The notes under the pieces: generated by a model
Told to the model about the DNA's origin: nothing
Databases searched by the model: none
Seen by the model: only the letters and a program-made list of their open reading frames with translations
NCBI GenBank assembly: GCA_964452025.1
Contig: CAYVKR010000001.1
Location: 1-46,387, forward strand
Direction: 5' to 3'
Length of the DNA: 46,387 nt
Origin: an uncultured Anaerolineales bacterium
Lineage (GTDB): Bacteria > Chloroflexota > Anaerolineae > B4-G1 > SLSP01
In this document: one piece after another, positions 18,638-45,970 of the stretch
How the letters are laid out: every line of letters starts with the position of its first letter
Numbering within the stretch: the first letter of the stretch is position 1
Position numbers and translations under genes: made by a program

Positions 18638-19852
18638 ATGAGTGTTGTCATCTCTATTGAGCATCTCTCCAAGGAATTCGTTCTTAAGCAAGCCGCACCG
18701 CGCTCGTTTCAAGAACTCGTGGTTGACCTGTTGAGACGAAAAACGCACTCCCAGGTGGAGCGCTTTGTGGCGCTTGACGATGTCAGTCTAGAGATTGAGC
18801 AGGGCGAAACCGTGGGGCTGATCGGGCCCAATGGCGCGGGGAAGAGCACGCTGCTCAAGCTGGTGGCCGGCATTATCGAGCCTACCAGCGGCAACGTACA
18901 GATCTACGGAAGAGTGGGGGCCCTCTTGGAGCTCGGCGCCGGCTTTCATCCCGATCTGACGGGACGTGAGAACATCTACCTCAACGGGTCCATCCTGGGT
19001 CTATCTCGAGCTGAAATTCAGGACAAAATGGACGATATCATCTCCTTTGCCGAGCTGGAGCGCTTCATCGATGCGCCGGTGCGTCATTATTCCTCGGGCA
19101 TGTACGTGCGTCTGGGCTTTTCCGTGGCAGTGCACACGGAGCCGCAAATTCTCTTGGTGGATGAGGTGTTGGCCGTTGGCGACGCAGCCTTTCAGCGCAA
19201 ATGTATGGATAAAATCGACGACATGCGCAGGGCTGGCGTGACCATCCTCTTCGTCTCTCACAGCGCTGAACTTGTACGCAAGATCTGCAAGCGCGCCGTA
19301 TGGTTGGACGCGGGGCGCTGTGTGGCCGATGGTGCAGCGGAGTCGGTGGCGGCGCGGTATCTGGATCACTCGTGGGCGCAGGAGCAAACCCAAGTCGTCT
19401 CTGAAGAGGAGCGACGGTGGGGAAACGGCAAGGTGCGCATCACCGACGTGCGATTATTGGGCGGCGAGGGAAAAGAGCAGCAACGTTTTCGCACGGGAGA
19501 GCCGATGACCGTGGAGATGCACTACGTGGCAAAGGAGCGGATCGAACAACCGGTCTTCGGACTGGCGATTCATCGGAGCGACGGGACCCACATCACCGGG
19601 CCGAATACGCAATTCGCCGGGCACGAGATCCCGTGGATCGCGGGGGAAGGAGCAGTCCGGTACACTATTCCCTTCTTGCCGTTACTCGAAGGGCGCTATT
19701 TTATCTCGGTAGCGGCCCACAATTGGGAAGACACAGAAATGTACGACTATCGGGATCGAGAGTACACGTTTCGGATGTTACCCAGTGAGAACCAGGGATA
19801 TGGTATAGTGACGCTGAGAGGAGGATGGTTCTGGAGCGGACAAACGTCTTAA
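18638..19852 (+). CDS. polysaccharide-export ABC transporter ATP-binding protein (Wzt/TagH type) with C-terminal Wzt-C-like carbohydrate-binding domain
   Basis: Walker A GPNGAGKST, signature YSSGMYVRLGF, Walker B ILLVDEVLAVGD. The GALLELGAGFHPDLTGRENIYLNG block is typical of Wzt/TagH. An extra beta-rich tail of about 150 aa (VRITDVRLLG...YFISVAAHN). Confidence 0.92.
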   Translation: MSVVISIEHLSKEFVLKQAAPRSFQELVVDLLRRKTHSQVERFVALDDVSLEIEQGETVGLIGPNGAGKSTLLKLVAGIIEPTSGNVQIYGRVGALLELGAGFHPDLTGRENIYLNGSILGLSRAEIQDKMDDIISFAELERFIDAPVRHYSSGMYVRLGFSVAVHTEPQILLVDEVLAVGDAAFQRKCMDKIDDMRRAGVTILFVSHSAELVRKICKRAVWLDAGRCVADGAAESVAARYLDHSWAQEQTQVVSEEERRWGNGKVRITDVRLLGGEGKEQQRFRTGEPMTVEMHYVAKERIEQPVFGLAIHRSDGTHITGPNTQFAGHEIPWIAGEGAVRYTIPFLPLLEGRYFISVAAHNWEDTEMYDYRDREYTFRMLPSENQGYGIVTLRGGWFWSGQTS

Positions 19853-21219
19853 TTATCAGTCATGATGTGGTTGGGAAGCGGATGGCCGGACCTGGCATCC
19901 GTTATTATCACTTAGCCCGCGTTTTAGGTCAAGAGTTTGAGACAGTGTTGGCTGTGCCCTCAGAAATCTCACCTGACATCTCTCCTGAAGGTTTTCGTTT
20001 TACTTCCTATACACGACGCGATTGGGATTCTATTGCCACGTGGGTAGCTGCAGCAGATACGGTGATCTTTCCCAGTGACATCGCCAGTGATTTCCCTTTA
20101 CTGGCCCAGAGTGGCACTTTTTTGGTCGTCGACGGATACGATCCCTTGTTAGCCGAATGGTTATCCCTGAGTCAAGGGGAACCCCTGGAGAATTGGGAAC
20201 GGTACTGGTGGGATCGGATGTGCTCCTTAAACGAACAGTATCTGATGGGTGATTTTTTCATCTGCGCTAGTGAACGTCAGCGTGACTGGTGGTTGGGTTT
20301 ACTAGAAGCGAATGGCCGTATTAACCCCTACACGTTCAAAGGGGATCCCTCGTTGAGATCTCTAATCGACGTGGTGCCTTATGGCTTGCGGGACGTGGCT
20401 CCGCAAAGCACTGAGCCGGTGATCAAAGGGGTCTGGTCAGGGATTGAGCCTGAGGATAAGGTCATCTTGTGGGGTGGAGGGCTGTGGCCGTGGCTAGACC
20501 CCCTGACGGCTATCCGGGCCGTGGAATCTGTCAGGCAGCAGCGGCGTGACGTGCGTTTGGTCTTTCCTGGTACGAAACATCCGAATCCCTGGATGGAGGA
20601 AACACCGACGCACACCGATTCTGCTCGCGCATTAGCTCGGGAGAAAGGCCTATTGGGGAGGGCCGTCTTTTTTGGTGACTGGATACCCTATGAAGATTGG
20701 CCCAATGTGTTGTTGGAGAGTGATCTTGCTCTTTCCCTGCACTACGACACGTTGGAAACCCGGCTCGCTTTTCGCAGTCGAGTGCTGGATTACATTTGGG
20801 CGGGGCTGCCCGTGGTGGCGACAAAAGGCGATGCGACCAGCGATCTCATTTCCAACCATCACCTTGGCGCTGTGGTCGACTTCGAAGCTGTTGGGGGTGT
20901 TTCCGCAGCTATTCTGCAGCTCCTGGAAAAGCCTCGTGCTGAGTTTGATAAGCGGTTTGAAGAGGTGCGAAAAACGTTGACGTGGAGGGAGACAGCACGT
21001 CCGTTGTTGAATTTCTGCCGGCATCCTCATCGTGCAGCAGACAAGGCAGCACTGGGTGAAGATCTTGGTAGCCCCTTTTATACTGCAAAGATTCAGCAGA
21101 TCGTTGCTGAGTGGGAATATTGGCGTGAGCTGACACGGCAATATGAGCAAGGTCGGTTTATGCGTTTCATGCGCTGGATGGAGCGGATGCGGCGAAAATA
21201 TCTGGAGAAAGATGGATGA
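19825..21219 (+). CDS. glycosyltransferase (GT-B fold, GT4-like)
   Basis: N-terminal VLIISHDVVGKRMAGPGIRY. C-terminal half VILWGGGLWPWLDP...VRLVFPGTKHPN...DLALSLHYDTLETRLAFRSRVLDYIWAGLPVVATKGD. The exact start is uncertain (28-nt overlap with the ABC gene). Confidence 0.8.
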   Translation: MVLERTNVLIISHDVVGKRMAGPGIRYYHLARVLGQEFETVLAVPSEISPDISPEGFRFTSYTRRDWDSIATWVAAADTVIFPSDIASDFPLLAQSGTFLVVDGYDPLLAEWLSLSQGEPLENWERYWWDRMCSLNEQYLMGDFFICASERQRDWWLGLLEANGRINPYTFKGDPSLRSLIDVVPYGLRDVAPQSTEPVIKGVWSGIEPEDKVILWGGGLWPWLDPLTAIRAVESVRQQRRDVRLVFPGTKHPNPWMEETPTHTDSARALAREKGLLGRAVFFGDWIPYEDWPNVLLESDLALSLHYDTLETRLAFRSRVLDYIWAGLPVVATKGDATSDLISNHHLGAVVDFEAVGGVSAAILQLLEKPRAEFDKRFEEVRKTLTWRETARPLLNFCRHPHRAADKAALGEDLGSPFYTAKIQQIVAEWEYWRELTRQYEQGRFMRFMRWMERMRRKYLEKDG

Positions 21220-22532
21220 AGGCCTCGATTATCATCCCGGTTTGGAACGGACGGGAGTATCTACGCGACTGCCTTGATGCGGTGCTGGCCCAGGATTATC
21301 CAGACTTTGAGGTTATCGCTGTGGATAATGCGTCCACGGACGGTTCTGCCGATTTTGTGGCGGAGCAGTATCCCGACGTGCGCTTGATCCTGTACGAAGA
21401 AAACCGGGGATTCGCAAAGGCGTGTAACGCCGGTTTGTGCTCTGCGTCTGGCGAAGTCCTTATCTTACTTAACCAGGACACGGAAGTCCAACTTGGCTGG
21501 CTGACTGCGTTGATCAAGGTACTGAGATCTGACCCACAGGTGGGCATTGTGGGGGGCAAGGCTTTGTATCCCGATGGGCGTATTCAACATGCAGGCGGGC
21601 ATATTGATATGCGCGGCGCGGGTGTGCACTATGGACACGGCGACGTCGACATGGGTCAGCATGATCAGCGTCGGGAGGTCGATTACGTCACCGGCGCAGG
21701 CCTGGCTATCACGCGGCAGGCCTATGACCTCATAGGCCCATTGGATGAAGGGTTTTCTCCTGCCTATTATGAGGACGTAGATTGGTGTTATCGTGCGTCG
21801 GAAGTGGGATTTCGTGTCGTCTATGTGCCCCAGGCGGTGATGATCCACGAGGAGACGAGTTCGCTTGCCCGTCCCCATTCCTATGAGGGCATGTACTTGC
21901 CCCAACGCAATCGACTGCGCTTTGTTTTGAAACATTGGCCAACAGATCGATTGCTGGATGAATTTTTACCTCATGAGACTGCTTGGCTCCAGACGTTGGA
22001 TGAGGGTGGTGAACGACTTGTCGCCGTGATGCACCGTGTCTATCTCTTTCATCTGCTGCATCTACAGTCAACGTTGAGGGCACGGGCAGCACGATATGGG
22101 AGCGCGATGGAGGACGTTGACCCCATCGCCCACGTGCTCTTGACGTTGCGGGCGGTGACGCCCCTACGTCCTGCGCGATTGTTTGACGAATCGCCGGATC
22201 AGCCTGCTGCACAGACCGCGCTTCTTCGCCGTCTTCACGAAGGATGGTCTATTGAGCCACGGCCCTTTCAATCCGACGTGCCTGTTATCGGACCACTTAT
22301 CGTCTTTTTCCGTCGTCAGTGGAACCGTGTTGCAACGGAGTGGTATGTTCGCCCCATGATTCAGCAGCAAGTCGAGTTCAACGCCGAAGTGGTGACCATG
22401 CTCAAGCAGTTGCACCGCGACTATCAGAGGTTGGCTGAAGTTCTGGCGGAATATCTTCGCGAGGATGGCCGAGAGATTGCGGAGTTGGGCCAGGCGATTC
22501 AAGATCTGGCTGTCTCAATGGAGAAAGATTAG
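21216..22532 (+). CDS. GT2 family glycosyltransferase with ~95-aa C-terminal helical/coiled-coil module
   Basis: SIIIPVWNGREYLRDCLDAVLAQDYPDFEVIAVDNASTDGS, a DxD-equivalent in LLNQDTE, and YYEDVDWCYR. The C-terminal tail is described in the findings. Confidence 0.9.
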   Translation: MKASIIIPVWNGREYLRDCLDAVLAQDYPDFEVIAVDNASTDGSADFVAEQYPDVRLILYEENRGFAKACNAGLCSASGEVLILLNQDTEVQLGWLTALIKVLRSDPQVGIVGGKALYPDGRIQHAGGHIDMRGAGVHYGHGDVDMGQHDQRREVDYVTGAGLAITRQAYDLIGPLDEGFSPAYYEDVDWCYRASEVGFRVVYVPQAVMIHEETSSLARPHSYEGMYLPQRNRLRFVLKHWPTDRLLDEFLPHETAWLQTLDEGGERLVAVMHRVYLFHLLHLQSTLRARAARYGSAMEDVDPIAHVLLTLRAVTPLRPARLFDESPDQPAAQTALLRRLHEGWSIEPRPFQSDVPVIGPLIVFFRRQWNRVATEWYVRPMIQQQVEFNAEVVTMLKQLHRDYQRLAEVLAEYLREDGREIAELGQAIQDLAVSMEKD

Positions 22533-22545
22533 AATTTCAGTTACT

Positions 22546-23784
22546 ATGCGGGTTCTAGTCGTGACCAACACGTTTCCCCCCGGATACACTGGCGGGGCCG
22601 AGATCTCCAATTATCATACCTGCCGGGGATTGCGAAAGCGCGGGATAGATTGCTCGATTCTGGTTCTCAACAACCGCCGGGGCAAGACAGTGGACGAGTG
22701 GTATGAGTTTGACGGCATCCCAGTTCATCGCGCCCATGTGGTCACCAAAAAACGGACGGCATGGCGAGATGTTTTTGATCCGCGAATCTATCGTGCGGTG
22801 CGAACGGCCTTGCGGAAGCTACAGCCCGACCTTGTGCACGTCCACAACGTCTCGGGAACCACCTTGGCACCTTACCTGGCCTGTCGGCAGGTGGGCGTGC
22901 CGGTGGTCAATACGTTGCACGATCTCTGGTTACTCTGTCCGAATAACATGCTCTATCGAAAGGATGGGTCGTTTTGCGATCCCAAACAATACCCTCGCGG
23001 GTGCGGAGACTGCTTCCGACGTTACGATTATTGGGGCGACATCGTCGGGCGACGCCGGATTTTTTCTCTGCTGACCGCCAACGTCTCGTATTTCATCTCT
23101 CCCAGTCAGGCGATCATTGACCGGCACGTGGAAGCGGGCTATGCACGTGAACGTTTTCGGCTGGTGCGACTGGGCTTCGAGAACCCAGGCCCTCAAAGAC
23201 CACAGCATCCAACCGTGCGCGCCGTTGTGGAGATGGCTAGGCGTTATCAAGTGATCGTTTTTGCCGGCGGCGGTGTGGAGATTAAAGGCGCGTGCGTTTT
23301 ACTGGAGGCGATACCTATGTTACTCGCCCACATCGACCGTTTGAGAATGGTGGTCGCTGGCGGCGGGGACAAACGGTTCCTGGATCAGTTTCGCAGATAT
23401 GCACCAGCGGTTCAGGTGCTGGGAAAGGTCCCTTTCCGGGAGATGCGCACGCTATTTGGTGCTGGTGATTTGACGATACTTCCTTCGGTTTGGCATGAAA
23501 ACTCACCTGTGGTCATCTTTGAAAGCTTCCAGAGAGGCACGCCGGTCCTTGCTTCCAAGATTGGGGGGATTCCCGAGTTTATTCAAGAAAATCGTACCGG
23601 CTATCTGTTTCCGCCCGCCAGCGCCAGTGCGCTGGCGGAAAAGGCAATCTTGCATTTCGCTCGTTCTGCTGTGGAGCGGCGAAGGATGCGCCAAACGTGC
23701 TATCGATATGTCGATGAAGAACTGGCGTTCAAGCAGCATATCGAAGGGATACTGACCGCCTATGATGAGGTTCTGGGATACTGA
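22546..23784 (+). CDS. GT4 family glycosyltransferase
   Basis: MRVLVVTNTFPPGYTGGAE start. C-terminus PSVWHENSPVVIFESFQRGTPVLASKIGGIPEFI (E-x7-E-type motif). Confidence 0.9.
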   Translation: MRVLVVTNTFPPGYTGGAEISNYHTCRGLRKRGIDCSILVLNNRRGKTVDEWYEFDGIPVHRAHVVTKKRTAWRDVFDPRIYRAVRTALRKLQPDLVHVHNVSGTTLAPYLACRQVGVPVVNTLHDLWLLCPNNMLYRKDGSFCDPKQYPRGCGDCFRRYDYWGDIVGRRRIFSLLTANVSYFISPSQAIIDRHVEAGYARERFRLVRLGFENPGPQRPQHPTVRAVVEMARRYQVIVFAGGGVEIKGACVLLEAIPMLLAHIDRLRMVVAGGGDKRFLDQFRRYAPAVQVLGKVPFREMRTLFGAGDLTILPSVWHENSPVVIFESFQRGTPVLASKIGGIPEFIQENRTGYLFPPASASALAEKAILHFARSAVERRRMRQTCYRYVDEELAFKQHIEGILTAYDEVLGY

Positions 23785-25010
23785 TGCGGTTGTTACACGT
23801 GACCCATCAATACCGGCCTGCCATTGGTGGCGCTGAGACGTACATCGCCGATCTTTCGGAAACGCTGGCGCGGCGCGGACATCATATAGACGTTTTCACC
23901 AGTCGTTCTGTTGACTATCGAACCTGGCGCAGTGCCTTACCCGGGTTCGAGCGATTAAATGGCGTCGATGTGTATCGCTTTCGCAGCTTGCCGCGCACGG
24001 ATCACGTCTGGCGAGCGCTCAAATGTGGCTTCAAGCATTACTGGCGTACGAGACGATGGTGGTACGAACCCTTTATCTTCTACGGCAACGGCCCTGTGAG
24101 TCTGGGTATGTTGGCAGCGCTTATGCGCCGGGTTGGTTCCTATGATCTCGTTCATATCAACAATCTGCACTATGCGCACGCGCTTCTTGCGTATCTGGCG
24201 GCTCGGTTGCGGCGGGTGCCGTACGTCATCACGCCTCATCTCCACGCGGAACAGCGGGAGACCCATGACGTAGGATATATGCACACAATCTTACGAGACA
24301 GCCATGCGATTCTGACCGTGAGCCGCGCTGAAAAGCAATATCTGTTGATGCGCGGCTGGAACGACCGCGTGATCGTGGGCGGCAATGGCTTACGACTGGA
24401 GGATTTTCCGGTGTATGACCGGCGAGCGTGTCGAGCGCATTTTGGATTGCCGGATGCCGCTTTCGTGATGCTATTCCTGGGGCGGAAGACGGCCTACAAG
24501 GGCCTGGAATTGTGTCTAGATGCATTTCTAACCCTGCGTCAGGTACGGGAGGACATCCATTTTTTGGCCGTCGGGCCGGAAACCGAGTTCTCACAGCGTT
24601 TATGGGAGCGCCGGCCCGAGGTCAAGGGTCTGGTCGTGCGGGGTAGGGTGTCTGATGAGGAACGTCTGAAAGCCCTACAAGCGTGTGACGTCCTGGTGCT
24701 TCCTTCCGTTGGAGAGGCGTTTGGCATCGTCTATCTGGAAGCGTGGGCCTACGAGAAGCCAGTCATTGGGGCGGACATTGCGTCGGTAGCTTCTATTATC
24801 GATCATGGCGTGGATGGGCTGCTGGTCGCGCCCCAGGCGCTGGGTAGGCTGGTAAAGGGGCTTTCCCAGATCGCCGACAACCCTTCCCAGGCTCAAGAGA
24901 TGGGACGGCGGGGGCGAGAAAAGCTCGAAGAACGCTACACGGTTGAGCGCATTGCGGACATTGTCGAGGGGACCTGTGCGCGAGTGATAAGGGCATACGG
25001 TACAGGGTGA
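23784..25010 (+). CDS. GT4 family glycosyltransferase
   Basis: MRLLHVTHQYRPAIGGAETY. PSVGEAFGIVYLEAWAYEKPVIGADIASVASII. Confidence 0.9.
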   Translation: MRLLHVTHQYRPAIGGAETYIADLSETLARRGHHIDVFTSRSVDYRTWRSALPGFERLNGVDVYRFRSLPRTDHVWRALKCGFKHYWRTRRWWYEPFIFYGNGPVSLGMLAALMRRVGSYDLVHINNLHYAHALLAYLAARLRRVPYVITPHLHAEQRETHDVGYMHTILRDSHAILTVSRAEKQYLLMRGWNDRVIVGGNGLRLEDFPVYDRRACRAHFGLPDAAFVMLFLGRKTAYKGLELCLDAFLTLRQVREDIHFLAVGPETEFSQRLWERRPEVKGLVVRGRVSDEERLKALQACDVLVLPSVGEAFGIVYLEAWAYEKPVIGADIASVASIIDHGVDGLLVAPQALGRLVKGLSQIADNPSQAQEMGRRGREKLEERYTVERIADIVEGTCARVIRAYGTG

Positions 25011-25121: not shown

Positions 25122-26636
25122 ATGCGTATAAGTTTGATCAATGTGAATCTGGTAGCACAAGACGCGATTGGTCAGTGTATGCTGCACCAGTTGCGCTTCT
25201 TCCGTCGTCGGGGTGATGAGGTACGGACCTACACCTTGCATCCCCCAGAAGGTGTAACAGAAGACATCGTGGAGCTGACGCGCGTGGTAGACCTTGCAGA
25301 TCTTATTGCCCGTCGGGGTGAGCACTTTGCACGTTCCGACCTGTACATCTATCATTATCCGGGACGATATCCCTTGATGGAGAGCATCAAGGGGCTGGAG
25401 CGCGGCGCCGTGATCTTCTACTATCACAACGTGACGCCGCCAGAGCTCTGGAACGCGGCCTCGGATCGCGAGGCGCTGCGCCACAGTGCTACCAGCGTCG
25501 ATGAGCTGGCCTATTACGCAGATCTTGTGGTGACCCCTAGCCCCTTCAACGCAAAGCAGTTGGTCGAGGAGCAGCACCTTGAAAGGGATCAAATCCGAGT
25601 ACTGCCGCTTGCAGTTCCGCTCAACGACTTTTCTCCAGGGGCACCCGATCCCGCGTTGGTGCGTTTCTATCACGCCGACGGACGCGCCGTGGTCCTCTTC
25701 GTGGGACGAATGGCGAGCAATAAGCGGATCGATCTGCTGATTGAAGCATTATCCAAGGTTCGCCACGCGGTGCCCGGGGCGATGCTTATGTTGGTGGGTG
25801 ATAATGATAGCAATCCGGCGATTAAAGAAACCGTAGCCCATGCCCATCGCAAGGCCGCCGATTTAGGAGTGGCAGATGATGTGGTGTTTGCTGGACGTGT
25901 GGATGACTTGCCCGACTACTATCGCATGGCGTCCGTTTACGCCTCTGCCAGTTTGCACGAGGGCTTTGGCGTGCCGCTCATCGAGGCGATGGCTTCTGGG
26001 TTGCCCGTGGTGGCCAGCCGGACGACGGCGCATCCCTGGGTGGTGAACGAGGCCGGCCTGCTGGCTGAACCTGGGGACGCAGGTGATATGGCTGAAAAGA
26101 TCCTCCAGGTGCTCACAGATGACGAGATCTATGGGGAGTTGGTGCGTCGAGGTTTGCAACGGGCGCGTGAATTCTCGCTGGAGCAGTATCTCTATGGTTG
26201 GGATAAGATTGTGCGGGAAGCAACCGCCTGGCTCCCCGATCAACCTTACCCGCGACCGCAATCGGTCAGGGCGCGCCTAGTAGAGCCCCACGCGGCAGAT
26301 GCGCCCACTGTGGAGGATGTGTTGTTCCAGGGCGAGCTGGGTCGGCTGAACGCGAAGGCGGATATCCGCTTGCGTGGTTACAAGATCCGCTCTAAGATAC
26401 CGATTTTTGGCCCGCTGGTCACATGGTTTCGCCGGAACCTCACCTCGCATCTTCGAGAACCTTACATCGATCCTACTTTTGCGCGCCAGGTGGCTTTCAA
26501 CCGCGAACTCGTTGATCGGCTAGGATGGTTCATAGATCAACTCAAAAAGGCGGAGCGGCGATTAGCTGAGCAGGCGGCACGTATCACCACGTTGGAGAGA
26601 GAGCTGGCGAAACGCAAATCAGGTGAAGACCGGTGA
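25122..26636 (+). CDS. GT4 family glycosyltransferase, paralog A1 (YYHNVTPP type) with C-terminal helical module
   Basis: VIFYYHNVTPPELW and SLHEGFGVPLIEAMASGLPVVAS. About 87-aa tail IPIFGPLVTWFRRN...QVAFNRELV plus coiled coil. Confidence 0.9.
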   Translation: MRISLINVNLVAQDAIGQCMLHQLRFFRRRGDEVRTYTLHPPEGVTEDIVELTRVVDLADLIARRGEHFARSDLYIYHYPGRYPLMESIKGLERGAVIFYYHNVTPPELWNAASDREALRHSATSVDELAYYADLVVTPSPFNAKQLVEEQHLERDQIRVLPLAVPLNDFSPGAPDPALVRFYHADGRAVVLFVGRMASNKRIDLLIEALSKVRHAVPGAMLMLVGDNDSNPAIKETVAHAHRKAADLGVADDVVFAGRVDDLPDYYRMASVYASASLHEGFGVPLIEAMASGLPVVASRTTAHPWVVNEAGLLAEPGDAGDMAEKILQVLTDDEIYGELVRRGLQRAREFSLEQYLYGWDKIVREATAWLPDQPYPRPQSVRARLVEPHAADAPTVEDVLFQGELGRLNAKADIRLRGYKIRSKIPIFGPLVTWFRRNLTSHLREPYIDPTFARQVAFNRELVDRLGWFIDQLKKAERRLAEQAARITTLERELAKRKSGEDR

Positions 26637-27610: not shown

Positions 27611-27770
27611 GGTAGTCACCCCTTAACCTGTTGGTGGCATAAGCTACCTTCCCGGAAGCTGGGAAAACTAATCTGACAGGCTAAAACCTGCGCAAGGGTG
27701 GGTAGTTCTGCTCAGAACCATCCGCCCTACCTTCCGGGAAGGTGACCCACACTCAAGAGGGAGACTATCT
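27611..27770 (+). other. nested inverted-repeat / structured-RNA candidate in a 360-bp intergenic gap
   Basis: Outer imperfect IR ggtagtcaccc (27611-27621) / gggagactatc (27759-27769). Perfect 13-bp stem accttcccggaag (27646-27658) / cttccgggaaggt (27731-27743). Central 13-position hairpin gggtgggtagttc (27696-27708) / gaaccatccgccc (27715-27727): 10 Watson-Crick pairs, 2 GU wobbles and 1 mismatch. Confidence 0.35.
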
Positions 27771-28908: not shown

Positions 28909-28932
28909 GCCAGTCAGGACGTGGGAGAGCCT

Positions 28933-30620: not shown

Positions 30621-30621
30621 T

Positions 30622-32581: not shown

Positions 32582-32599
32582 ACATCGATGGGAGATAAG

Positions 32600-34080: not shown

Positions 34081-34137
34081 ATAGTTAGAGCGTGGCTGGC
34101 GGTTATGAAGAGGATAGACAACTTGGATGAGGTGGGT

Positions 34138-36126: not shown

Positions 36127-36135
36127 CGGTCTTTG

Positions 36136-38667: not shown

Positions 38668-38695
38668 TTGACATTCCATTGCCTGCTGATAGAAT
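38668..38695 (+). promoter_or_regulatory. sigma70-type promoter
   Basis: TTGACA (38668-38673), 16-nt spacer, TAGAAT (38690-38695). Confidence 0.5.
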
Positions 38696-38849: not shown

Positions 38850-41270
38850 GTGAATGTGCGACGACGCAGATGCATACTTTTGATCCTGATTTTCGTCTTT
38901 ACGCTCCTGGGGTGTTCAAGTTATCTGGATCAGGATCAAGTCTCTACGGGTTTTCAGAGCGATCTCTATCTTGGAAACCACAATACGGTTGGCCAGACTT
39001 TCGTCGCGCGTCACGGCGGTCTAAACGGCGTTGAGTTCTGGCTGCATCCTACGCCGGGCGCGAGTGGTCGCCTGCGGATGCGCCTGTTTCGTGGGCCTGA
39101 TACTGATCAAGAAATTGCCACTGCTGAGCTCTCTCTTGAAAGCGGTTCCTCTCCTGGCTTTCACAGATTCACCTTTGAGCCCTTGCGCGCATCCCATGGA
39201 GAGTATTACTACGCCGTGCTGACCTTCGAAGGTGAAGGCGAGGTCCAGTTAGGAACCGGACTCGGTGACGCCTACCTCGATGGTGCCGTATACCAGGACC
39301 ATGAGCCGAAAAATGCCCAGGCCGCTTTCCGCCTGACCTACGATCCTTGGTGGATGGCGCTGGAATTGGCCGGCGCGGCGGTGCGCGGAGCAGGACTCAT
39401 CGGGGTGGCGCTGCTGCTCTACGCAGTGCCGGGGTGGGCGCTGCTGGCCTGGCTCTGGCCGCACTCTGATCTCACCTGGGCCGAGCGACTGGCGTTAGCC
39501 GTAGGCATTAGCCTGGCGCTCTATCCTCTGCTCCTGCTCTGGACCGATGTCGTGGGCCTGCACCTCGGCGCACTCTATGCTTGGATTCCCGTCGTAGGCG
39601 GCCTCGTTGCTCTGGTGTGGCGCCACCGCGACTGGCGACCGCGCAAAGGCGGGGATGCGTTGAAGCGTTGGGCGCGCTCCGACGTGCTCTGGCCTGACGT
39701 GACCTTGTTGATCGTCCTGGCCCTGGTCTTTGGGGTGCGGTTGCTCGTCGTGCGGACGCTGGACGCGCCCATGTGGGGCGATTCGTACCAGCACACCATG
39801 ATCGCGCAGCTGTTGGTGGACAATGGCGGTCTCTTCAATTCTTGGGAACCGTATGCGGATCTACGCTCGTTTACCTATCATTTTGGATTTCACACTGCTG
39901 TGGCCGTTTTTCACTGGGTGACCCGAACGCCAATGGTCAACTCGGTTATCTGGATGGGACAGCTGCTAAATGGGTTGGCGGTTTTCACGCCAGCGCTTTT
40001 GACCCGGCGGATCAGCAAAAACCCGTGGGTTGTCCCCTCGACCGTATTATTGTCCGGCTTGCTTTCGCCCATGCCCATGTATTACGTCAACTGGGGGCGC
40101 TACACGCAGTTGGCTGGGCAGGTAATTCTGCCGGTCGCGGTGTGGCTTTCTTGGGAGGCCTTCAGCGCTGAGCGGCGACGCTGGCACTTGGTGGCGCTGA
40201 CCTGGTTGGCCGTGGGGGGGCTTGCCCTGACGCACTATCGCGTCTTGATTTTCTACGTCGCGTTTGTGTTGGCCTGGTTGCTCGTCTCTTTCCGGGGCGA
40301 TGGGCGCAAGGCCGTATCTCGCGTCGTCACGGTAGGTCTGGGCGGCGCACTCCTTTTCTTACCCTGGTTCATGCATATCGCAGGTGGAAAGATCCTGGCA
40401 AACTTCGGTCGCCAATTGACGACGGGCGCGAGCCAGGTTTCGGGGTTCACTCAAGATTACAATACCATCGGTGATTTTACTCTTTACTTGGCGCCCGCTG
40501 GCTGGCTTCTCTTTGCTGTAGCGTTAGGGTATAGTCTTTGGCTACGCAAACGAGGATCACTGCTGATAGGCCTCTGGTGGTTTTTTCTCTTGATCGCTAC
40601 CAATCCAGCGTGGTTACATCTCCCGGGTAGCGGGGCGATCAGCAATTTTGCCCTGTTCATAGCAACCTATTTACCCTGGGGAGTATTGGTCGGGATCCTG
40701 GTGGCTGATATGTTCACCTACTTGACGTCCTTAAGGTTTGGGACTATTCTGGTCATGTTGGTTGTTGTGGTTACAAGCTTATTGGGGGCTCGAGAGCGTT
40801 TGCGCGACCTGCGTATCTCTCAGCACGCGATGGTCACCCGTCCTGATCTTCGGGCTATGAAATGGATCCAAGAACACACGTCTGAGGATGCACGTTTCTT
40901 GGTTAATTCATTCTTTGCGTATGGGGATAGCGTGATTGTAGGTGCGGATGGCGGCTGGTGGCTCCCATTGTTGGCTGGGCGGGAGAATACGGTTCCACCC
41001 TTAAATTACGATTTTGAATCTGCACCTTGGGAAGGATATCGATCTTCACTGCATAGCTTAGCACGCGAAATTATCGAGTACGATTTTGGTGATCCGGAGT
41101 TGATTGAATCCCTCGACCTTCAGAGGATTACTCATATATATATTGGTCAGAGGCAGGGAAGTATTAATCATAGCAACGGTTTCTTAATAGTTGAACAGCT
41201 TGTTGAGGAGCCGTACTATGAATTGCTTTATCATCAAGATCGTGTGTGGATCTTTCGAGTTGTGAAATGA
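38850..41270 (+). CDS. polytopic membrane protein with lipoprotein-type N-terminal domain; putative GT-C-like glycan transferase or polymerase (function uncertain)
   Basis: 806 aa. Lipobox-like FTLLGCSS. A soluble domain of about 160 aa, then at least 12 hydrophobic segments. Loop DAPMWGDSYQHTMIAQLLVDNGG after an early TM. A soluble C-terminal domain of about 140 aa. No family assigned with confidence. Confidence 0.8.
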   Translation: MNVRRRRCILLILIFVFTLLGCSSYLDQDQVSTGFQSDLYLGNHNTVGQTFVARHGGLNGVEFWLHPTPGASGRLRMRLFRGPDTDQEIATAELSLESGSSPGFHRFTFEPLRASHGEYYYAVLTFEGEGEVQLGTGLGDAYLDGAVYQDHEPKNAQAAFRLTYDPWWMALELAGAAVRGAGLIGVALLLYAVPGWALLAWLWPHSDLTWAERLALAVGISLALYPLLLLWTDVVGLHLGALYAWIPVVGGLVALVWRHRDWRPRKGGDALKRWARSDVLWPDVTLLIVLALVFGVRLLVVRTLDAPMWGDSYQHTMIAQLLVDNGGLFNSWEPYADLRSFTYHFGFHTAVAVFHWVTRTPMVNSVIWMGQLLNGLAVFTPALLTRRISKNPWVVPSTVLLSGLLSPMPMYYVNWGRYTQLAGQVILPVAVWLSWEAFSAERRRWHLVALTWLAVGGLALTHYRVLIFYVAFVLAWLLVSFRGDGRKAVSRVVTVGLGGALLFLPWFMHIAGGKILANFGRQLTTGASQVSGFTQDYNTIGDFTLYLAPAGWLLFAVALGYSLWLRKRGSLLIGLWWFFLLIATNPAWLHLPGSGAISNFALFIATYLPWGVLVGILVADMFTYLTSLRFGTILVMLVVVVTSLLGARERLRDLRISQHAMVTRPDLRAMKWIQEHTSEDARFLVNSFFAYGDSVIVGADGGWWLPLLAGRENTVPPLNYDFESAPWEGYRSSLHSLAREIIEYDFGDPELIESLDLQRITHIYIGQRQGSINHSNGFLIVEQLVEEPYYELLYHQDRVWIFRVVK

Positions 41271-41278
41271 GGTAAATT

Positions 41279-41944
41279 ATGAAAAATATCGCGATGCTTA
41301 CGTTGTGGACGACGGTTTTAATTGGGGTCATGTTTTTGCTAAGTGATTGTAAGTATACAGAAATGTCGACTTCACCATTGTCTTCACCTTTGCAGTCAAA
41401 TTCACCGATTTCATCACCATCAGCTAGATCGATTTTACCTACAATGCCCGCAGTCGAGGAGACTCCTGTTCCTGGATCAATAGTGGAACCCGATATTGAT
41501 CTTGAAGCACTTGTTTTGCGTCCTGGAGATATGCAACCTTTTTTTGACCATGCGACTTATGCGATTACCCAACCTTATGAATCTGAATCGATGTGGGGGC
41601 TTCTAGTGACTTATCCTACAGAGATTCTGCAACATACAACTGCCTTTGCTGAGGGTTTTTCTACTCAAGTGGAGATATATAAGGAGTATTCACAAGCGGT
41701 CGATATGTATTATCTGAAGATGAAGGCACTTGAGGGTGAACGTATTAATCTAGATGACATTGCAGACAAAGGAGTCGCTTTTGTTTTGTCACCAACGTTG
41801 TCAGAATTAAATAAGCATGAATATACAATAATCATGAGGAAAGGCAATGTCCTTATCACTATAGAGATAAGAAGGGCTCACCCCATTACGGAGAAGGATA
41901 TTAAATCGATTTCGGGTCAAACTATCGATAAAATTTCCTACTAG
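41279..41944 (+). CDS. hypothetical lipoprotein
   Basis: 221 aa. Signal plus LLSDC lipobox-like site, then a Ser/Pro-rich linker. AT-rich codon usage unlike the core genome. Confidence 0.65.
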   Translation: MKNIAMLTLWTTVLIGVMFLLSDCKYTEMSTSPLSSPLQSNSPISSPSARSILPTMPAVEETPVPGSIVEPDIDLEALVLRPGDMQPFFDHATYAITQPYESESMWGLLVTYPTEILQHTTAFAEGFSTQVEIYKEYSQAVDMYYLKMKALEGERINLDDIADKGVAFVLSPTLSELNKHEYTIIMRKGNVLITIEIRRAHPITEKDIKSISGQTIDKISY

Positions 41945-42021
41945 ATCTCACATGATTCTTGACCGCGTTTTTTGGCTAATGCAACATTGGAGCAGTGCTG
42001 CAATTAACAGGGAGATACTTC

Positions 42022-43203
42022 ATGATTAATAAAGAATGCTCTAGACGCGAGGAATTTTTGGTTTTTGCTTCTCCTTATTTATTGGAGGAAGATATAAAAG
42101 AAGTTGTGGAAACGATTCGGTCTGGCTGGATTGGCACTGGGCCTAAAGTGCTTAGATTTGAGGAAAAATTTCAGGAATTGGTTGGTTCTCAGTACGCGAT
42201 TGCTATGAATTCATGTACTGCTGCATTATATATCGGACTACAGGTTGCAGGCATTGATTCTGGTGATGAAGTTATAACTACGCCTATGACATTTGCGGCT
42301 ACCGCAAATGTAGTTATTCATCACGGGGCTACTCCTGTCTTTGCTGATGTAGATAAACAGACGGGTAATATTTCTCCTGTCGAGATTGAAAGGAAGATAA
42401 CTTCTAGGACTAAAATGATAATACCTGTTCATCTGGCAGGTCGACCATGTGAGATGGATAAGATCCTTGATATTGCAGAAAGGAATGATCTATTGGTTAT
42501 GGAGGATGCTGCTCATGCGCTGGAAGCATTTTATCTGGGGCAGAAAATTGGCAATATAGGTGATATGGCTGCGTTCAGTTTTTATCCTACAAAAAGTCTC
42601 ACTACAGCGGAAGGTGGGATGTTGGTTACAAATTCTTCAATTTGGGCTGAAAAGGCTAGGTTATTGCGATTGCATGGGCTAGATGCCGATGCCTGGAAGC
42701 GATACTCTGATGAGGGATATGCGCATTATGAGACTATCGTGCCTGGTTATAAATTCAATATGTCTGATTTACAGGCTGCACTTGGTCTAAACCAGTTCAA
42801 GCGCTTAGCAGAAAATCTTGAACATCGGAGAAAGATATGGGAGATTTATGATGAGGGTCTTCAGGAGATTCCCGGTTTGGTTATTCCCCCAGAAGTTTCG
42901 GGGTCGGATACAATTCATGCCCGTCATTTGTATACAATTATGGTAGAATCTGATGAATTTGGTTTGACCCGGGATGAGTTAATGAGTCAGTTGAAAACAA
43001 TGAATATTGGTACTGGTGTTCACTATATTGGAGTTCACCTTCATGAATTTTACAGAAGGAAATTTGGTTATAAACCGGAGGATTTCCCAAATGCTACTTG
43101 GATTTCGGAACGGACACTCTCTTTGCCACTTTCTGCAAGTATGAAATTATCGGATGCTCGGTATGTTGTGAATGCTATTCAGTGGCTGTTTGAGCACCGG
43201 TAG
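42022..43203 (+). CDS. DegT/DnrJ/EryC1/StrS family PLP-dependent sugar aminotransferase (ArnB/PglE-like)
   Basis: SGWIGTGPKVLRFEEKF, AMNSCTAALYIGL, FSFYPTKSLTTAEGGM (catalytic Lys context), PGYKFNMSDLQAALGLNQ. Start moved to the ATG behind gggaga. Confidence 0.92.
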   Translation: MINKECSRREEFLVFASPYLLEEDIKEVVETIRSGWIGTGPKVLRFEEKFQELVGSQYAIAMNSCTAALYIGLQVAGIDSGDEVITTPMTFAATANVVIHHGATPVFADVDKQTGNISPVEIERKITSRTKMIIPVHLAGRPCEMDKILDIAERNDLLVMEDAAHALEAFYLGQKIGNIGDMAAFSFYPTKSLTTAEGGMLVTNSSIWAEKARLLRLHGLDADAWKRYSDEGYAHYETIVPGYKFNMSDLQAALGLNQFKRLAENLEHRRKIWEIYDEGLQEIPGLVIPPEVSGSDTIHARHLYTIMVESDEFGLTRDELMSQLKTMNIGTGVHYIGVHLHEFYRRKFGYKPEDFPNATWISERTLSLPLSASMKLSDARYVVNAIQWLFEHR

Positions 43204-43209
43204 ATTTTT

Positions 43210-43971
43210 ATGCACTTCTACATGGAGATTTCCGATTATTGGAAACTTTTACAATATGCTTATAAGCGCTTGAAATCTAAGCAGGATTATAGGGAATTTC
43301 AGTTCTTCCAAGGGGAGTTATTGATTAAATATCTTCACAGCAAGTCAATCAATTTGACGAATCTGACTGTGCTTGATTTGGGGTGCGGGTATGGTGGCTA
43401 CAGTTTAGCGTTTAAGTCAAAGAATAATAAGGTTCTTGCTATTGACCGATTCAATGTTGATGAGCAATTAGGTGTGGACAGCTTAATGTCTGATGCTGTG
43501 AATTTGCCCTTACTAACTGAAAGCTTCGATCTGATTATATGTGCAAGTTTAATTGAGCATGTTGCTCGACCGAAAAGTCTATTGAAGGAATTACGTCGTG
43601 TCATAAAGCCTGATGGATATGTGTATTTGAGTTTTCCGCCTTTCTATAGTCTGCTTGGAGGACACCAGTTTAGTCCTTTCCATTATTTGGGTGAAAAATT
43701 GGCTCTGCGTTTGATGGGACTTTTTCGTCATTGGGATGATGAAAGTTGGCTGGGAGAAAATTATCCTACGTCCCCTGACTCGTTTTCTGCTGCATATGGC
43801 GATTGGGGATTATACGTAATGACGATTAAGAAATTCAACTCTCTCGTCAAAGAGGTGGATTTCTTGATTATGGAAAGTGCTACTCGATTTCTTCCTTTCG
43901 ATTTCTCCGGACTGCCTTATTTGGGTGAGATTTTGACTTGGCATGTTCAATATCTACTGAGAAAAGAATAG
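43210..43971 (+). CDS. class I SAM-dependent methyltransferase
   Basis: Motif I VLDLGCGYGGYSL, motif post-I VLAIDR, FDLIICASLIEHV, IKPDGYVYLS. Confidence 0.85.
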   Translation: MHFYMEISDYWKLLQYAYKRLKSKQDYREFQFFQGELLIKYLHSKSINLTNLTVLDLGCGYGGYSLAFKSKNNKVLAIDRFNVDEQLGVDSLMSDAVNLPLLTESFDLIICASLIEHVARPKSLLKELRRVIKPDGYVYLSFPPFYSLLGGHQFSPFHYLGEKLALRLMGLFRHWDDESWLGENYPTSPDSFSAAYGDWGLYVMTIKKFNSLVKEVDFLIMESATRFLPFDFSGLPYLGEILTWHVQYLLRKE

Positions 43972-43984
43972 TATAGCGTCACAT

Positions 43985-44815
43985 ATGCAAGATTTTTGGT
44001 TTGAACATGATAAGCATTTGAATGGTGTGCATTTACCTAGAGAGGTGATGCTGTCACATGATCTCTATAGGGGGATGCCATCATGGTTCAATGCTTATTA
44101 TGCACATTTTCAGACACAGGCTGTTAAGGCCTTGTTGAATGAGATAGGTTCTATAGATGATATGTGTGTTCTTGATGTGGGATGCGGGACAGGGCGCTGG
44201 ACCGAGTTTCTTGCTGAACAAGGTGGGCGAATAATAGGAGTTGATATTGGAACATTAGCAGTGCAACTTGCTTCTATCCGGGGTTTGGAGAATGCGGGAT
44301 ATAGTGTTATGGCGCTTCCGGATTTAGGTTTTCAGAGTTCGAGTTTTGATCTTATTATTTCTGTCACTGTATTACAGCATCTACCATACTCTGAACAGTA
44401 TGAGGCGTTGTCTGTTTTGTATCGTATTCTCCGGCCAAGTGGATTTTTGATTACTTTAGAGATTGTGGAGGAAGACCCGGCACCTCATGTCTTCGGTAAT
44501 TCACGTGAGGTCTGGATTGAGAAATTTGAATCCGAAGGGTTTCATCTAGTTCGGTATAGACCGTGTGAATATTTGCCTTACGTTAAGATTTTTCATTGGC
44601 TTCGTGCTAAAATCAGCAAACATCGATATGCTCGTAGTAGTTTAATCTCAGGCTCGGACGTTTCTCAAGTGTCCGGGTTTTTGAAGAAGTATACTTTTAT
44701 ACGTTTGCTTGTTAGAGGTATGATCCTGATGTCCTATCCTCTTGAGTATCTATCAATGTATCTTCTATCGTCCAGATTGGCAAGAGTGGGCGGATTTCTC
44801 CTTGTCAAACAGTAA
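43985..44815 (+). CDS. class I SAM-dependent methyltransferase with hydrophobic C-terminal tail
   Basis: VLDVGCGTGRWTEFLAEQGGRIIGVDI, FDLIISVTVLQHL, LRPSGFLITLE. C-terminal hydrophobic segments. Confidence 0.85.
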   Translation: MQDFWFEHDKHLNGVHLPREVMLSHDLYRGMPSWFNAYYAHFQTQAVKALLNEIGSIDDMCVLDVGCGTGRWTEFLAEQGGRIIGVDIGTLAVQLASIRGLENAGYSVMALPDLGFQSSSFDLIISVTVLQHLPYSEQYEALSVLYRILRPSGFLITLEIVEEDPAPHVFGNSREVWIEKFESEGFHLVRYRPCEYLPYVKIFHWLRAKISKHRYARSSLISGSDVSQVSGFLKKYTFIRLLVRGMILMSYPLEYLSMYLLSSRLARVGGFLLVKQ

Positions 44816-44830
44816 AACGAGGTTAAATAA

Positions 44831-45970
44831 GTGCGAATTGGTATTGTGACTAGTTCTTATCCAGTATCTTCTAAAGATACAGTTAATGCTGGAGTGTTTG
44901 TACGAGATTTGGGTCATGAATTGGTTAATCTAGGACATGAAGTGTATGTTATTACTCCTAGAAAATGGGGAAACATAGAAACAGATCCTAAGGTAGAAGT
45001 CTATTACTTTCCCTGGTTGGGTGGCGAAAAAGACTTGGCTAGTTCTTCTGCGAAGAATGTGCTCACCATGACGAGGTATGCTACCTTAGTGCTCGGCGGA
45101 GTATATTTCGTGACACGCTATGTCAAGAAAAACAACCTTCAGGTGTTGTTGGCGATGTGGGCTATACCCAGCGGTTTGTTTGCTTTGGTGACGAAGAAAA
45201 TACTGGGTGTTCCTTACGGGGTTTGGGCCCTAGGCTCGGATATTTGGGCTCGGGATGAATATCCATTTGGTGATTATCTTGTTAGACGTGTATTGCGTAA
45301 GGCCTCATTCCGTTTTGCTGATGGGATAGACTTAGCAGCTGAGACAGCAAACCTCACCGAATCCAGTTGTGAATTTGTACCATCTGTCAGAAATTTGTCG
45401 TCTGATGAATTTGGGAGAGTTGATTTGGATCCGGATATGCCTCAATTCCTTTATATAGGCCGTTATGAATATAATAAAGGGCCTGATCTATTGGTTGACG
45501 CTATGTGTAGCCTACTGGATTCTGGATTTGATGCTACATTACATATGTTCGGAATAGGATCAATGAAATCTAGTTTGATTAAGCGAGTTAGCGGGTATGA
45601 GGATTATATTCATCTCAATAGTTATGCGCCACCGGACATTGTGGTTTCATATATGAAAGCTTGTGATTGGCTAGTGATTCCATCGCGTATTGAAAGCATA
45701 CCATTGGTCTTTATGGATGCGCTCAACATGAATATACCTGTGATTGTCTCTGATGTAGGAGATATTGGTGAATTAGTACGGAAATATCAGATTGGTAGGG
45801 TTGTGCCATCAGCGGATCGTGATGCTTTGCAAGATGCATTGTTGTGGGCATCTCAAAAGAATAAAGAGTGTTTTAATTCCTCGTTAAAAAAACTTGCCAG
45901 AAGATTTAGTTTGCGAGAATCTACTGTCCGGTGTGTTGAAGCACTAGCCAAGGCAATTCATCAAGGTTAA
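44831..45970 (+). CDS. GT4 family glycosyltransferase
   Basis: GTG start. (M)RIGIVTSSYPVSSKDTVNAGVFVRDL. PSRIESIPLVFMDALNMNIPVIVSDVGDIGELV. Confidence 0.85.
   Translation: MRIGIVTSSYPVSSKDTVNAGVFVRDLGHELVNLGHEVYVITPRKWGNIETDPKVEVYYFPWLGGEKDLASSSAKNVLTMTRYATLVLGGVYFVTRYVKKNNLQVLLAMWAIPSGLFALVTKKILGVPYGVWALGSDIWARDEYPFGDYLVRRVLRKASFRFADGIDLAAETANLTESSCEFVPSVRNLSSDEFGRVDLDPDMPQFLYIGRYEYNKGPDLLVDAMCSLLDSGFDATLHMFGIGSMKSSLIKRVSGYEDYIHLNSYAPPDIVVSYMKACDWLVIPSRIESIPLVFMDALNMNIPVIVSDVGDIGELVRKYQIGRVVPSADRDALQDALLWASQKNKECFNSSLKKLARRFSLRESTVRCVEALAKAIHQG

Follow-up and report, generated by a model that had tools for sequence, protein, structure and literature searches.

A candidate ABC-transporter-dependent locus for a predicted sulfated cell-envelope polysaccharide in an Anaerolineae-type Chloroflexota bacterium

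The DNA analysed here (the window) is an entire 46,387-bp contig from a metagenome-assembled genome (MAG) of an uncultured Anaerolineales bacterium. Positions 14381-45970 probably comprise most of the biosynthetic locus for a cell-envelope heteropolysaccharide of Anaerolineae-type Chloroflexota, which would depend on an ATP-binding cassette (ABC) transporter of the Wzm/Wzt type and is predicted to be sulfated. An earlier sequence-only reading of the window had proposed a candidate sulfated, ABC-exported surface glycan pathway. This proposal is supported by profile hidden Markov models (HMMs), protein fold, the catalytic residues and binding site for the sulfate donor 3'-phosphoadenosine 5'-phosphosulfate (PAPS), and synteny in relatives, though it stays a candidate. 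The parts are of known kinds, namely a Wzt with a carbohydrate-binding domain (CBD), glycosyltransferases (GTs) of the GT4, GT2 and GT-C types, and Sulfotransfer_2 enzymes. The novelty appears to lie in their combination, a conserved Chloroflexota locus in which a sulfotransferase resembling HS2ST and HS6ST forms a constant part of a Wzm/Wzt pathway that, in relatives, ends with a LytR-CpsA-Psr (LCP) ligase. A sulfated wall or surface polymer is therefore implied in a phylum with none described, its function being predicted at the level of annotation.

Fold, active site and spread of the sulfotransferases

The two enzymes on which the prediction of sulfation is based are encoded as follows:

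26652-27527, + strand: sulfotransferase 1 (ST1), 291 aa; Pfam, fold and motifs; lineage-restricted extra copy
31706-32581, + strand: sulfotransferase 2 (ST2), 291 aa; Pfam; copy conserved across Chloroflexota loci

Two 291-aa sulfotransferases had been read from the letters, and HMM searches bear this out, with matches to Sulfotransfer_2 and Gal-3-O_sulfotr above the cut-offs. ST1 matches PF06990 (Gal-3-O_sulfotr) with 66.6 bits (cut-off 27) and PF03567 (Sulfotransfer_2) with 41.1 bits (cut-off 22), while ST2 matches the same families with 43.9 and 45.4 bits, respectively, both above the gathering cut-offs. The two enzymes share 47% identity. The PAPS motifs that had been quoted are present verbatim, as FLHIQKTAGTT / FLHIPKTAGTT and TVLRDPIERVVSHYY / TVLRDPVDRVISYYY. 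The proposed resemblance to HS6ST also holds, as the top sequence match among solved structures is zebrafish HS6ST3 (5t03). With a single sequence as query, HS6ST3 was matched at E 5e-7 and HS2ST at E 2e-3, and with a family profile these values became 1e-20 and 3e-13. No NCBIfam model matched the sulfotransferases, nor did any match the 175-aa protein, the 221-aa protein or the DUF6541 protein encoded in the same locus. The database protein of ST1 begins one codon after the first Met of the open reading frame (ORF).

The fold and the PAPS site were assessed with an AlphaFold2 model of the sulfotransferase that drew on 53 homologues (pLDDT 93.7, pTM 0.90), and with residue conservation in an alignment of 53 family members. 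In a Foldseek search against the PDB, the best 50 fold matches are all sulfotransferases, led by HS2ST (E 5e-8) and HS6ST (TM-score 0.57). The polysaccharide-modifying HS2ST and HS6ST align with TM-scores of 0.52-0.57, in comparison to 0.31-0.37 for the cytosolic small-molecule SULTs. The residues of the PAPS pocket are kept: H17, G23, G68, H69, R89, R94 and S97 are invariant in 53/53 members, and position 20 is K in 46/53 and R in 7/53. The 5'-phosphosulfate loop, H-I-x-[K/R]-T-A-G-T-T, is invariant or nearly so across the 53 members, and its forms HIQKTAGTT and HIPKTAGTT align with HIQKTGGTT of HS6ST and PKTAST of HS2ST. Likewise, the 3'-phosphate motif R89...R94..S97 aligns with RDPIERLVS of HS2ST and RDPVSRYLS of HS6ST. 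In a profile alignment, K20 corresponds to the lysine of PKTA in HS2ST, and the invariant H69 corresponds to the second histidine of the HS2ST motif HGH, the catalytic base of that enzyme. Judged from alignment and model together, the PAPS pocket and the catalytic machinery of ST1 and ST2 are intact. Neither a transmembrane segment nor a signal peptide was found in ST1 or ST2, which suggests that both are probably cytoplasmic, where PAPS is made.

These data bear on the view that the sulfotransferases act on an acceptor other than a polysaccharide (a glycolipid, lipid-linked primer, small metabolite or protein), or that they are inactive and the glycan is unsulfated. The characterised bacterial carbohydrate sulfotransferases do act on lipo-oligosaccharides or glycolipids, as in Nod factor and the mycobacterial sulfolipid (cited in PMC8205485), and the genes of many members of the present family are not part of any recognisable glycan locus, for example those on Priestia plasmids and those in about half of the Chloroflexota loci. 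Nevertheless, we regard this view as very improbable, given the conservation of PAPS-site and catalytic residues across the 53 members (with K or R at position 20), the proximity of the fold to polymer-modifying enzymes rather than SULTs, and the position of the sulfotransferase genes, which overlap or abut GT4 genes (-11 to +15 bp) in a pairing that is kept in relatives.

The two copies differ in their distribution. Orthologues of ST1 (73% and 72% identity) are confined to the close relatives L004 and L006 (L numbers denote related loci), whereas ST2 is the best match of the lone sulfotransferase in 10/10 relatives' loci (L010, L012, L018, L021, L023, L028, L030, L031, L035 and L046). ST1, together with the epimerase encoded after it, thus appears to be a lineage-specific addition found in close relatives only, and ST2 the conserved copy.

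The family as a whole is large. A profile search of 1.84 billion representatives returned 4,709 matches at E<=1e-30, a number that rises to 16,682 at E<=1e-10, and GTDB contigs (one genome per species) contain at least 525 relatives, found in Chloroflexota (Anaerolineae, Promineifilaceae, Ardenticatenaceae, Caldilineales and Chloroflexia), Cyanobacteria, Verrucomicrobiota, Actinomycetota and others. NCBI labels these proteins just 'sulfotransferase family 2 domain-containing protein'. Some of the top profile matches (P0241-P0247) are 540-1250 aa long and carry 2-4 sulfotransferase domains of the family in tandem, which suggests multi-site sulfation enzymes in some organisms. Homologues with 30-35% identity also occur on plasmids of cultured Priestia megaterium and P. 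aryabhattai, in a context rich in insertion sequence (IS) elements and without a glycan cluster. The P. megaterium homologues were considered as a tractable model and set aside as their context is uninformative; on plasmid pBM600 of strain QM B1551 (L088), the gene at 11986-12657 stands isolated amid IS elements.

Gene order in the window and in related loci

The remaining genes of the locus, several of which are referred to below by their start coordinates, are these:

14381-15505, + strand: secreted Vgb-lyase/SGL-like beta-propeller (Pfam Vgb_lyase, 142 bits; hydrophobic N-terminal segment)
15507-16955, + strand: secreted GH5-like glycoside hydrolase (Pfam Cellulase, 29.7 bits)
16952-18502, + strand: secreted glycosyl-hydrolase-core protein with CARDB domain (Pfam Glyco_hydro_cc and CARDB)
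18638-19852, + strand: Wzt, ABC-transporter ATPase with C-terminal CBD (Pfam ABC_tran, 81 bits; Wzt_C, 117 bits)
19825-21219, + strand: GT4, always paired with Wzt in relatives (Pfam; 48-50% identical homologues adjoin Wzt in L031 and L035)
21216-22532, + strand: GT2 with C-terminal shared tail motif and coiled coil (Glycos_transf_2, 98.6 bits; motif at 22281)
22465-23784 and 23784-25010, + strand: two GT4 (Pfam)
25122-26636, + strand: GT4, 504 aa, with C-terminal shared tail motif and coiled coil (Pfam; motif at 26400)
27889-28908, + strand: CDP-tyvelose 2-epimerase-like short-chain dehydrogenase/reductase (SDR) (9rl0, 352 bits; 1orr, 325 bits; syntenic in L004)
28921-29448, + strand: 175-aa protein with no Pfam domain, shared tail motif and coiled coil (motif at 29200; homologues in 11 related loci)
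29445-30620 and 30592-31716, + strand: two GT4 (Pfam; order conserved in relatives)
32588-33679, + strand: GT4, paralogue of the 30592 GT4 with 39% identity (Pfam)
34069-36126, + strand: signal-anchored extracytoplasmic FG-GAP beta-propeller (FG-GAP_3, 102 bits; transmembrane segment at residue 30)
36133-37395 and 37392-38519, + strand: two GT4 (Pfam; 36133-like GT4 after FG-GAP in relatives)
38850-41270, + strand: DUF6541 membrane protein, 806 aa, GT-C fold (homologues carry PF20176; AlphaFold2; fold matches)
41279-45970, + strand: 221-aa signal-anchored protein, ArnB-like aminotransferase, two S-adenosylmethionine (SAM) methyltransferases and a GT4 starting at 44831 (Pfam, PDB matches)

Gene by gene, these identities agree with the sequence-only reading, which had named about 11 GT4/GT2 enzymes (ten Glycos_transf_1/GT4 and one GT2 in Pfam, hence 11), a 2-epimerase-like SDR, an FG-GAP propeller, an 806-aa membrane protein (polytopic, with at least 11 transmembrane segments), an ArnB-like aminotransferase (DegT family; ArnB structure 1mdo, 301 bits) and two SAM methyltransferases (both class I in Pfam). 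It had also placed them in a Chloroflexi-like background, and the named homologues of the first protein search all belong to Anaerolineae, Promineifilaceae or Leptofilum.

To place the locus among its relatives, 80 genome loci were compared, annotated with the window's own proteins and with Wzm and LCP from a Candidatus Leptofilum locus; outside Chloroflexota, the context statistics rest on similarity to window proteins, and zeros there are no evidence against glycan genes. The same sulfotransferase was found embedded in the same Wzt/Wzm glycan locus across related genomes. The recurring Chloroflexota order, based on L002/L014, L012, L018, L021, L023, L028, L031, L035 and L004, begins with the Vgb-like propeller, GH5 and the GH-core/CARDB protein, followed by Wzt with Wzt_C, a 19825-like GT4, a GT2, further GT4s and a coiled-coil protein like the 175-aa protein. 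It continues with 29445-like and 32588-like GT4s, the sulfotransferase, a GT4, FG-GAP, a 36133-like GT4, another GT4, Wzm and finally LCP. L035 reproduces the window order from GH5 through FG-GAP, L031 combines Wzt, Wzm and the sulfotransferase with the three hydrolase-like genes, and L004 shares the series GT4 (513 aa), sulfotransferase, SDR, 179-aa protein, GT4, GT4, sulfotransferase, GT4. The corresponding loci L002, L012, L018, L021, L023, L028 and L031 contain Wzm, and Wzm followed by LytR_cpsA_psr closes the locus in L002/L014, L012, L018, L021 and L023. Of the Chloroflexota loci, 28 are at least 10 kb long; 14 of these carry two or more window-like GT4 genes, 11 carry FG-GAP homologues (downstream of the sulfotransferase in the mapped loci), nine carry Wzm or Wzt, and five carry LCP. 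Related loci are carried by Promineifilum, Trichofilum, Leptofilum, Ardenticatenaceae and Anaerolineales MAGs, and the layout recurs in filamentous members of the phylum.

The comparison also revises the extent of the locus. The sequence-only reading had described a co-directional 27-kb locus at 18638-45970, where 18638 is exactly the start codon of Wzt and 45970 the stop codon of the last GT4. Its co-direction stands, as every ORF in this range is on the + strand with small or overlapping spacing, except for three gaps of 330-390 bp. The single unit does not, as the true start lies near 14381, with the secreted hydrolase-like genes inside, and 41279-45970 forms a low-GC add-on. In total, 26 + strand genes occupy 13756-45970, mostly overlapping or a few bases apart. 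The three hydrolase-like genes (14381-18502) are counted into the locus because of their conserved synteny in relatives: a Vgb-lyase-like homologue adjoins GH5, GHcc and Wzt in L031, GH5-like homologues adjoin Wzt in L031 and L035, and homologues of the GH-core/CARDB protein (39-40% identity) are encoded immediately 5' of Wzt in L035 and close to it in L031.

At the other end, the five-gene module at 41279-45970 has a GC content of 0.39-0.42 and a third-codon-position GC content (GC3) of 0.34-0.40, in comparison to about 0.55 and 0.62 in the rest of the locus, and the boundary falls within 8 bp of the DUF6541 stop codon (41270/41279). A chimeric join was considered and ruled out, as two independent Logan assemblies (SRR7048227 and SRR7048219) span this junction at 100% identity; the module is therefore genuine and not an assembly error. 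It was probably acquired horizontally as an accessory module, judging from its composition. Acquired modules are common at the variable ends of surface-glycan loci.

Such a boundary could also be read as the seam of a mosaic, in which at least two independent glycan pathways are neighbours by position only, the sulfotransferases modify a product other than the one exported by Wzt, and the low-GC module together with the GT-C protein performs an Arn-like extracytoplasmic amino-sugar modification. In addition to the abrupt drop in GC and GC3, this reading could draw on the lineage-specific insertion of ST1 and the epimerase, on the ArnB-like enzyme adjoining a protein with an ArnT-like fold, and on the three 330-390 bp gaps. 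Two of these gaps hold the best two sigma-70-like sites on the + strand, at 34053-34080 (10/12) and 38668-38695 (11/12), both with an extended-10 TG; overall, promoter-like matches are no more frequent than the shuffled expectation. The mosaic is nonetheless rather improbable in our estimation, as the series of Wzt, sulfotransferase, and FG-GAP with GTs recurs as a single block across Chloroflexota orders. Furthermore, the GC content of DUF6541 is host-like, the locus L005 contains DUF6541 without the aminotransferase, and the Pfam scan of the window gave no equivalents of ArnA, ArnC or ArnD.

Three proteins of the locus share a tail motif, P-[VI]-[IF]-[GA]-P-L-[VI]..[FV]-R-R...Q..F-N, of about 50 residues, which has no Pfam match and is followed by heptad-rich sequence. 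It is found in the 175-aa protein and at the C-terminal ends of two glycosyltransferases, the GT2 (21216) and the 504-aa GT4 (25122), at + strand sites 22281-22380, 26400-26500 and 29200-29300, and the tail of the 504-aa GT4 is homologous to the 175-aa protein (E 1e-6). Stand-alone tail-motif proteins recur in 11 related loci. WbdD and WbbB are coiled-coil rulers in CBD-dependent O-antigen systems, and on this model the tail-motif proteins might, speculatively, serve as the scaffold of an assembly complex or as a chain-length ruler.

Export, attachment and the proposed pathway

The sequence-only reading had named a Wzt/TagH ATPase with a glycan-binding tail, an identity borne out by ABC_tran and Wzt_C in the product of 18638-19852. 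Over residues 32-378, the protein aligns with residues 26-370 of the full-length Wzt of Aquifex aeolicus (8dku), CBD included, at 268 bits, and it matches models of TagH and of the galactan-exporter ATPase at 190-210 bits. The methyl-binding pocket of the A. aeolicus protein (L300, T346, A348, H350 and W362) reads A, S, A, H and Y in the window Wzt, and the trap loop is two residues shorter. This partial conservation is compatible with recognition of a methyl cap or of another cap, and the locus encodes two methyltransferases and two sulfotransferases as candidate capping enzymes. The known export caps are methyl, (methyl)phosphate or Kdo (PMC9445017), and sulfate, which might even act as a non-reducing-end cap, would be a chemistry outside those listed for known systems.

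The DUF6541 protein was recognised as a GT-C enzyme by fold search only, as a sequence search against the PDB gave no match. In a Foldseek search with its AlphaFold2 model (pLDDT 85), 13/13 matches at E<=1e-3 are GT-C enzymes (AftA, STT3, DPY19, PglB and ArnT). A beta-sandwich forms the N-terminal part of the protein and a soluble domain its C-terminal part. Two aspartates in a conserved loop, D311 and D324, are invariant and presumably catalytic. More than 1,700 homologues with 48-75% identity belong overwhelmingly to Anaerolineae/Chloroflexota. Two further rows (P0157 and P0184), about 55% identical, are labelled as archaeal MAGs (Methanomethylicaceae and Bathyarchaeia), which reflects transfer between domains or else contamination during binning. 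In the closest relative (L005, 74% identity), DUF6541 likewise follows FG-GAP, GT4 and GT4, and is itself followed by GT4, GT4 and two methyltransferases. In some other relatives a PMT_2-type GT-C protein adjoins the sulfotransferase instead of DUF6541, and an extracytoplasmic transferase using lipid-linked sugars therefore appears to be regular in these loci.

The GT-C fold introduces a further alternative, in which a protein of the surface, S-layer or sheath receives the exported glycan en bloc, DUF6541 is the oligosaccharyltransferase, and the product is a sulfated protein glycan as in haloarchaeal S-layers. DUF6541 matches STT3/oligosaccharyltransferase and PglB as strongly as AftA and ArnT, and the invariant DGGWW of its C-terminal domain (residues 700-704) recalls the oligosaccharyltransferase motif WWDxG. 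The window is also devoid of an LCP gene, and Bacillota are known to have S-layer glycan pathways that depend on an ABC transporter with Wzt_C. However, DGGWW is not equal to a true WWDxG, DUF6541 is found in only two of the sulfotransferase loci examined, and no candidate gene for an acceptor protein was identified in the locus. Since the same core locus in relatives ends with Wzm and LCP, pointing to attachment to peptidoglycan, we hold transfer to protein to be unlikely.

For the envelope polysaccharide that we favour, the substrate, its sulfation, its export and its attachment to the wall are predicted as follows. Ten GT4 and one GT2 enzymes would build the chain on a polyprenyl-phosphate carrier at the cytoplasmic face, with unusual sugars supplied by the TyvE-like epimerase and the ArnB-like aminotransferase. 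More speculatively, the proteins with tail and coiled coil (the GT2, the 504-aa GT4 and the 175-aa protein) might stabilise the assembly complex or determine how long the chain becomes. Still in the cytoplasm, the glycan would receive sulfate esters from ST1 and ST2, as PAPS-dependent, HS2ST/HS6ST-like Sulfotransfer_2 enzymes, and O-methyl groups from the SAM methyltransferases. The CBD of Wzt would then read a terminal modification and license export by Wzm/Wzt, where Wzm is known from the relatives' loci. Outside the membrane, the GT-C protein DUF6541, the FG-GAP propeller and the three secreted hydrolase-like proteins could decorate, trim or turn over the polymer, and in relatives the LCP ligase encoded at the locus end would attach it to peptidoglycan.

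Several observations weigh against this pathway. No ORF of the window carries an ABC2_membrane domain in Pfam, and tblastn with Chloroflexota Wzm gave no hit in the window at E<=10; similarly, neither Pfam nor tblastn (E<=10) detected an LCP ligase there. Degenerate or frameshifted copies of Wzm or LCP were looked for in the window and none was found; the Wzm-LCP pair is thus missing there from the site that it occupies in relatives. The scanned ORFs of the window are also free of Glycos_transf_4 (PF00953) and Bac_transf domains, the marks of a priming transferase. In many systems the priming gene (wecA/tagO) is encoded elsewhere in the genome, and Wzm may be as well. With Wzm, the priming transferase and any ligase (LCP or other) missing from the contig, export is deduced from Wzt and from relatives. 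Eleven GTs are unusually many for an ABC-type polymer, and more than one product is therefore possible. The compositional foreignness of the terminal five genes also counts against the pathway, as does the context of about half of the Chloroflexota family members, which is without recognisable GT genes like those of the window. Motifs of the PAPS pathway (APS kinase, ATP sulfurylase, CysN and CysQ) were found neither in the window nor in 88 fetched loci by regular expressions, a weak form of search, and the contig shows no cysC, cysDN or sat. Finally, the literature searched contained no experimental work on this sulfotransferase clade in bacteria or on this type of locus. A supply of PAPS is plausible at the level of the phylum, because CysN, CysD and CysC have been reported in other Chloroflexota (PMC11005417).

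Comparison with known systems and significance

The locus can be compared with four kinds of characterised system. The CBD-dependent Wzm/Wzt export of O-antigens (Escherichia coli O9a; A. aeolicus WzmWzt, 8dku/7k2t; PMC9445017) shares with it a Wzt whose nucleotide-binding domain is fused to Wzt_C, cytoplasmic assembly by GT4 and GT2 enzymes, methyltransferases as candidate capping enzymes and coiled-coil candidate rulers. Unlike those systems, the window contig is from a Chloroflexota host, has no Wzm or WaaL, and carries sulfotransferases, where the established caps are methyl, (methyl)phosphate and Kdo. In addition, the O-antigen is ligated to lipopolysaccharide, whereas an LCP ligase lies at the locus end in the window's relatives.

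The synechan (xss) pathway of Synechocystis PCC 6803 is the only genetically characterised bacterial pathway for a sulfated exopolysaccharide (PMC8205485). It resembles the window in having two sulfotransferases among about 8-11 glycosyltransferases in one locus and in producing a sulfated extracellular heteropolysaccharide, which in the window is predicted from genes. The xss locus is of the Wzx/Wzy/PCP/OPX kind, whereas the window is of the ABC-transporter kind, and Pfam found no Wzx, Wzy or PCP domains in the window. The sulfotransferases also differ: XssA and XssE, which alone among bacterial exopolysaccharide sulfotransferases have been characterised, are of the Sulfotransfer_3/Sulfotransfer_1 type and can barely be aligned with ST1 (28 and 16 bits), and those of the window are of the Sulfotransfer_2/Gal-3-O type.

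With animal HS2ST and HS6ST (4ndz/3f5f, 5t03), the window enzymes share the fold, the 5'-phosphosulfate-binding and 3'-phosphate-binding motifs, the position of the catalytic histidine and a C-terminal helical region. They differ in that identity is 17-22% at a TM-score of about 0.52-0.57, and in that they are predicted to be soluble and cytoplasmic, without a Golgi stem or transmembrane segment. The fourth group comprises the LCP-attached wall glycopolymers with export of the TagGH/Wzm-Wzt type, such as wall teichoic acids, rhamnose polysaccharides and mycobacterial galactan (PMC7831098). Similarity extends to Wzt, given its 190-210 bits against the TagH and galactan-exporter models, to the Wzm and LytR_cpsA_psr genes that end the relatives' loci, and to the anionic character that the polymer would have. 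Here, sulfate esters would provide the negative charge in place of phosphodiesters, and the contig has no LCP, TagO or TagA-type genes.

Among bacteria, sulfated polysaccharides have been described as essentially confined to cyanobacteria (PMC8205485, PMC13390465), in which ABC-type clusters with sulfotransferases have already been predicted (PMC8205485). In wastewater granular sludge, sulfated glycoconjugates are chemically abundant, and their producers and sulfotransferases are unidentified because few matches to reference sulfotransferases were obtained (PMC10483923). A survey of a mat metagenome with PF13469 scored Chloroflexi as without sulfotransferases (PMC9723792), possibly because the XssA/XssE families differ from that of the window. 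The locus and its relatives provide a concrete, conserved gene set that bears on a sulfated wall or extracellular polymer in Chloroflexota, and a delimited sulfotransferase clade, with about 4,700 representative clusters at E<=1e-30, for the annotation of metagenomes. Both bear on the open question of which organisms make the sulfated polymers of sludge and mats.

A bolder proposal, which we advance as tentative, is that Wzm/Wzt and LCP serve filamentous, monoderm Chloroflexota of the Anaerolineae type to produce a wall polysaccharide that is sulfated (and methylated) and linked to peptidoglycan, as a sulfate-based functional counterpart of teichoic acids, that one sulfate might be the cap read by Wzt, and that the clade would then be a main source of the unassigned sulfated glycoconjugates found within extracellular polymeric substances from activated and granular sludge. 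Confirmation of the locus itself would extend the anionic wall polymers of monoderm bacteria by a new chemistry, and would supply candidate enzymes for the microbial production of sulfated glycans.

An Rfam scan of the window returned no RNA family, and a repeat scan returned just echoes of protein repeats and paralogues and one small inverted repeat. The arms of this inverted repeat (27646-27663 / 27726-27743) are 18 nt long, 89% complementary and separated by 62 nt. It is located in the 361-bp gap that separates the ST1 gene from that of the epimerase, and it may be a regulatory hairpin or a leftover of the insertion that brought ST1 and the epimerase. Within the Vgb-lyase-like gene, a diverged direct repeat of about 41 nt occurs four times at intervals of about 130 nt (14648-15354), which is due to the propeller blades of the protein. 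Because the promoter-like site at 34053-34080 overlaps the listed GTG start of FG-GAP, the true start of that gene is probably a downstream Met just before the signal anchor. The last gene of the locus ends 417 bp before the contig end. At the opposite end, positions 1-13.6 kb hold housekeeping genes on the - strand, identified by Pfam as pheT, pheS, a CitMHS transporter, L20, IF3 and UvrA. The gene inserted between pheT and pheS (4436-4816, - strand) encodes a '23S rRNA intervening sequence protein', a bAvd-like four-helix bundle.

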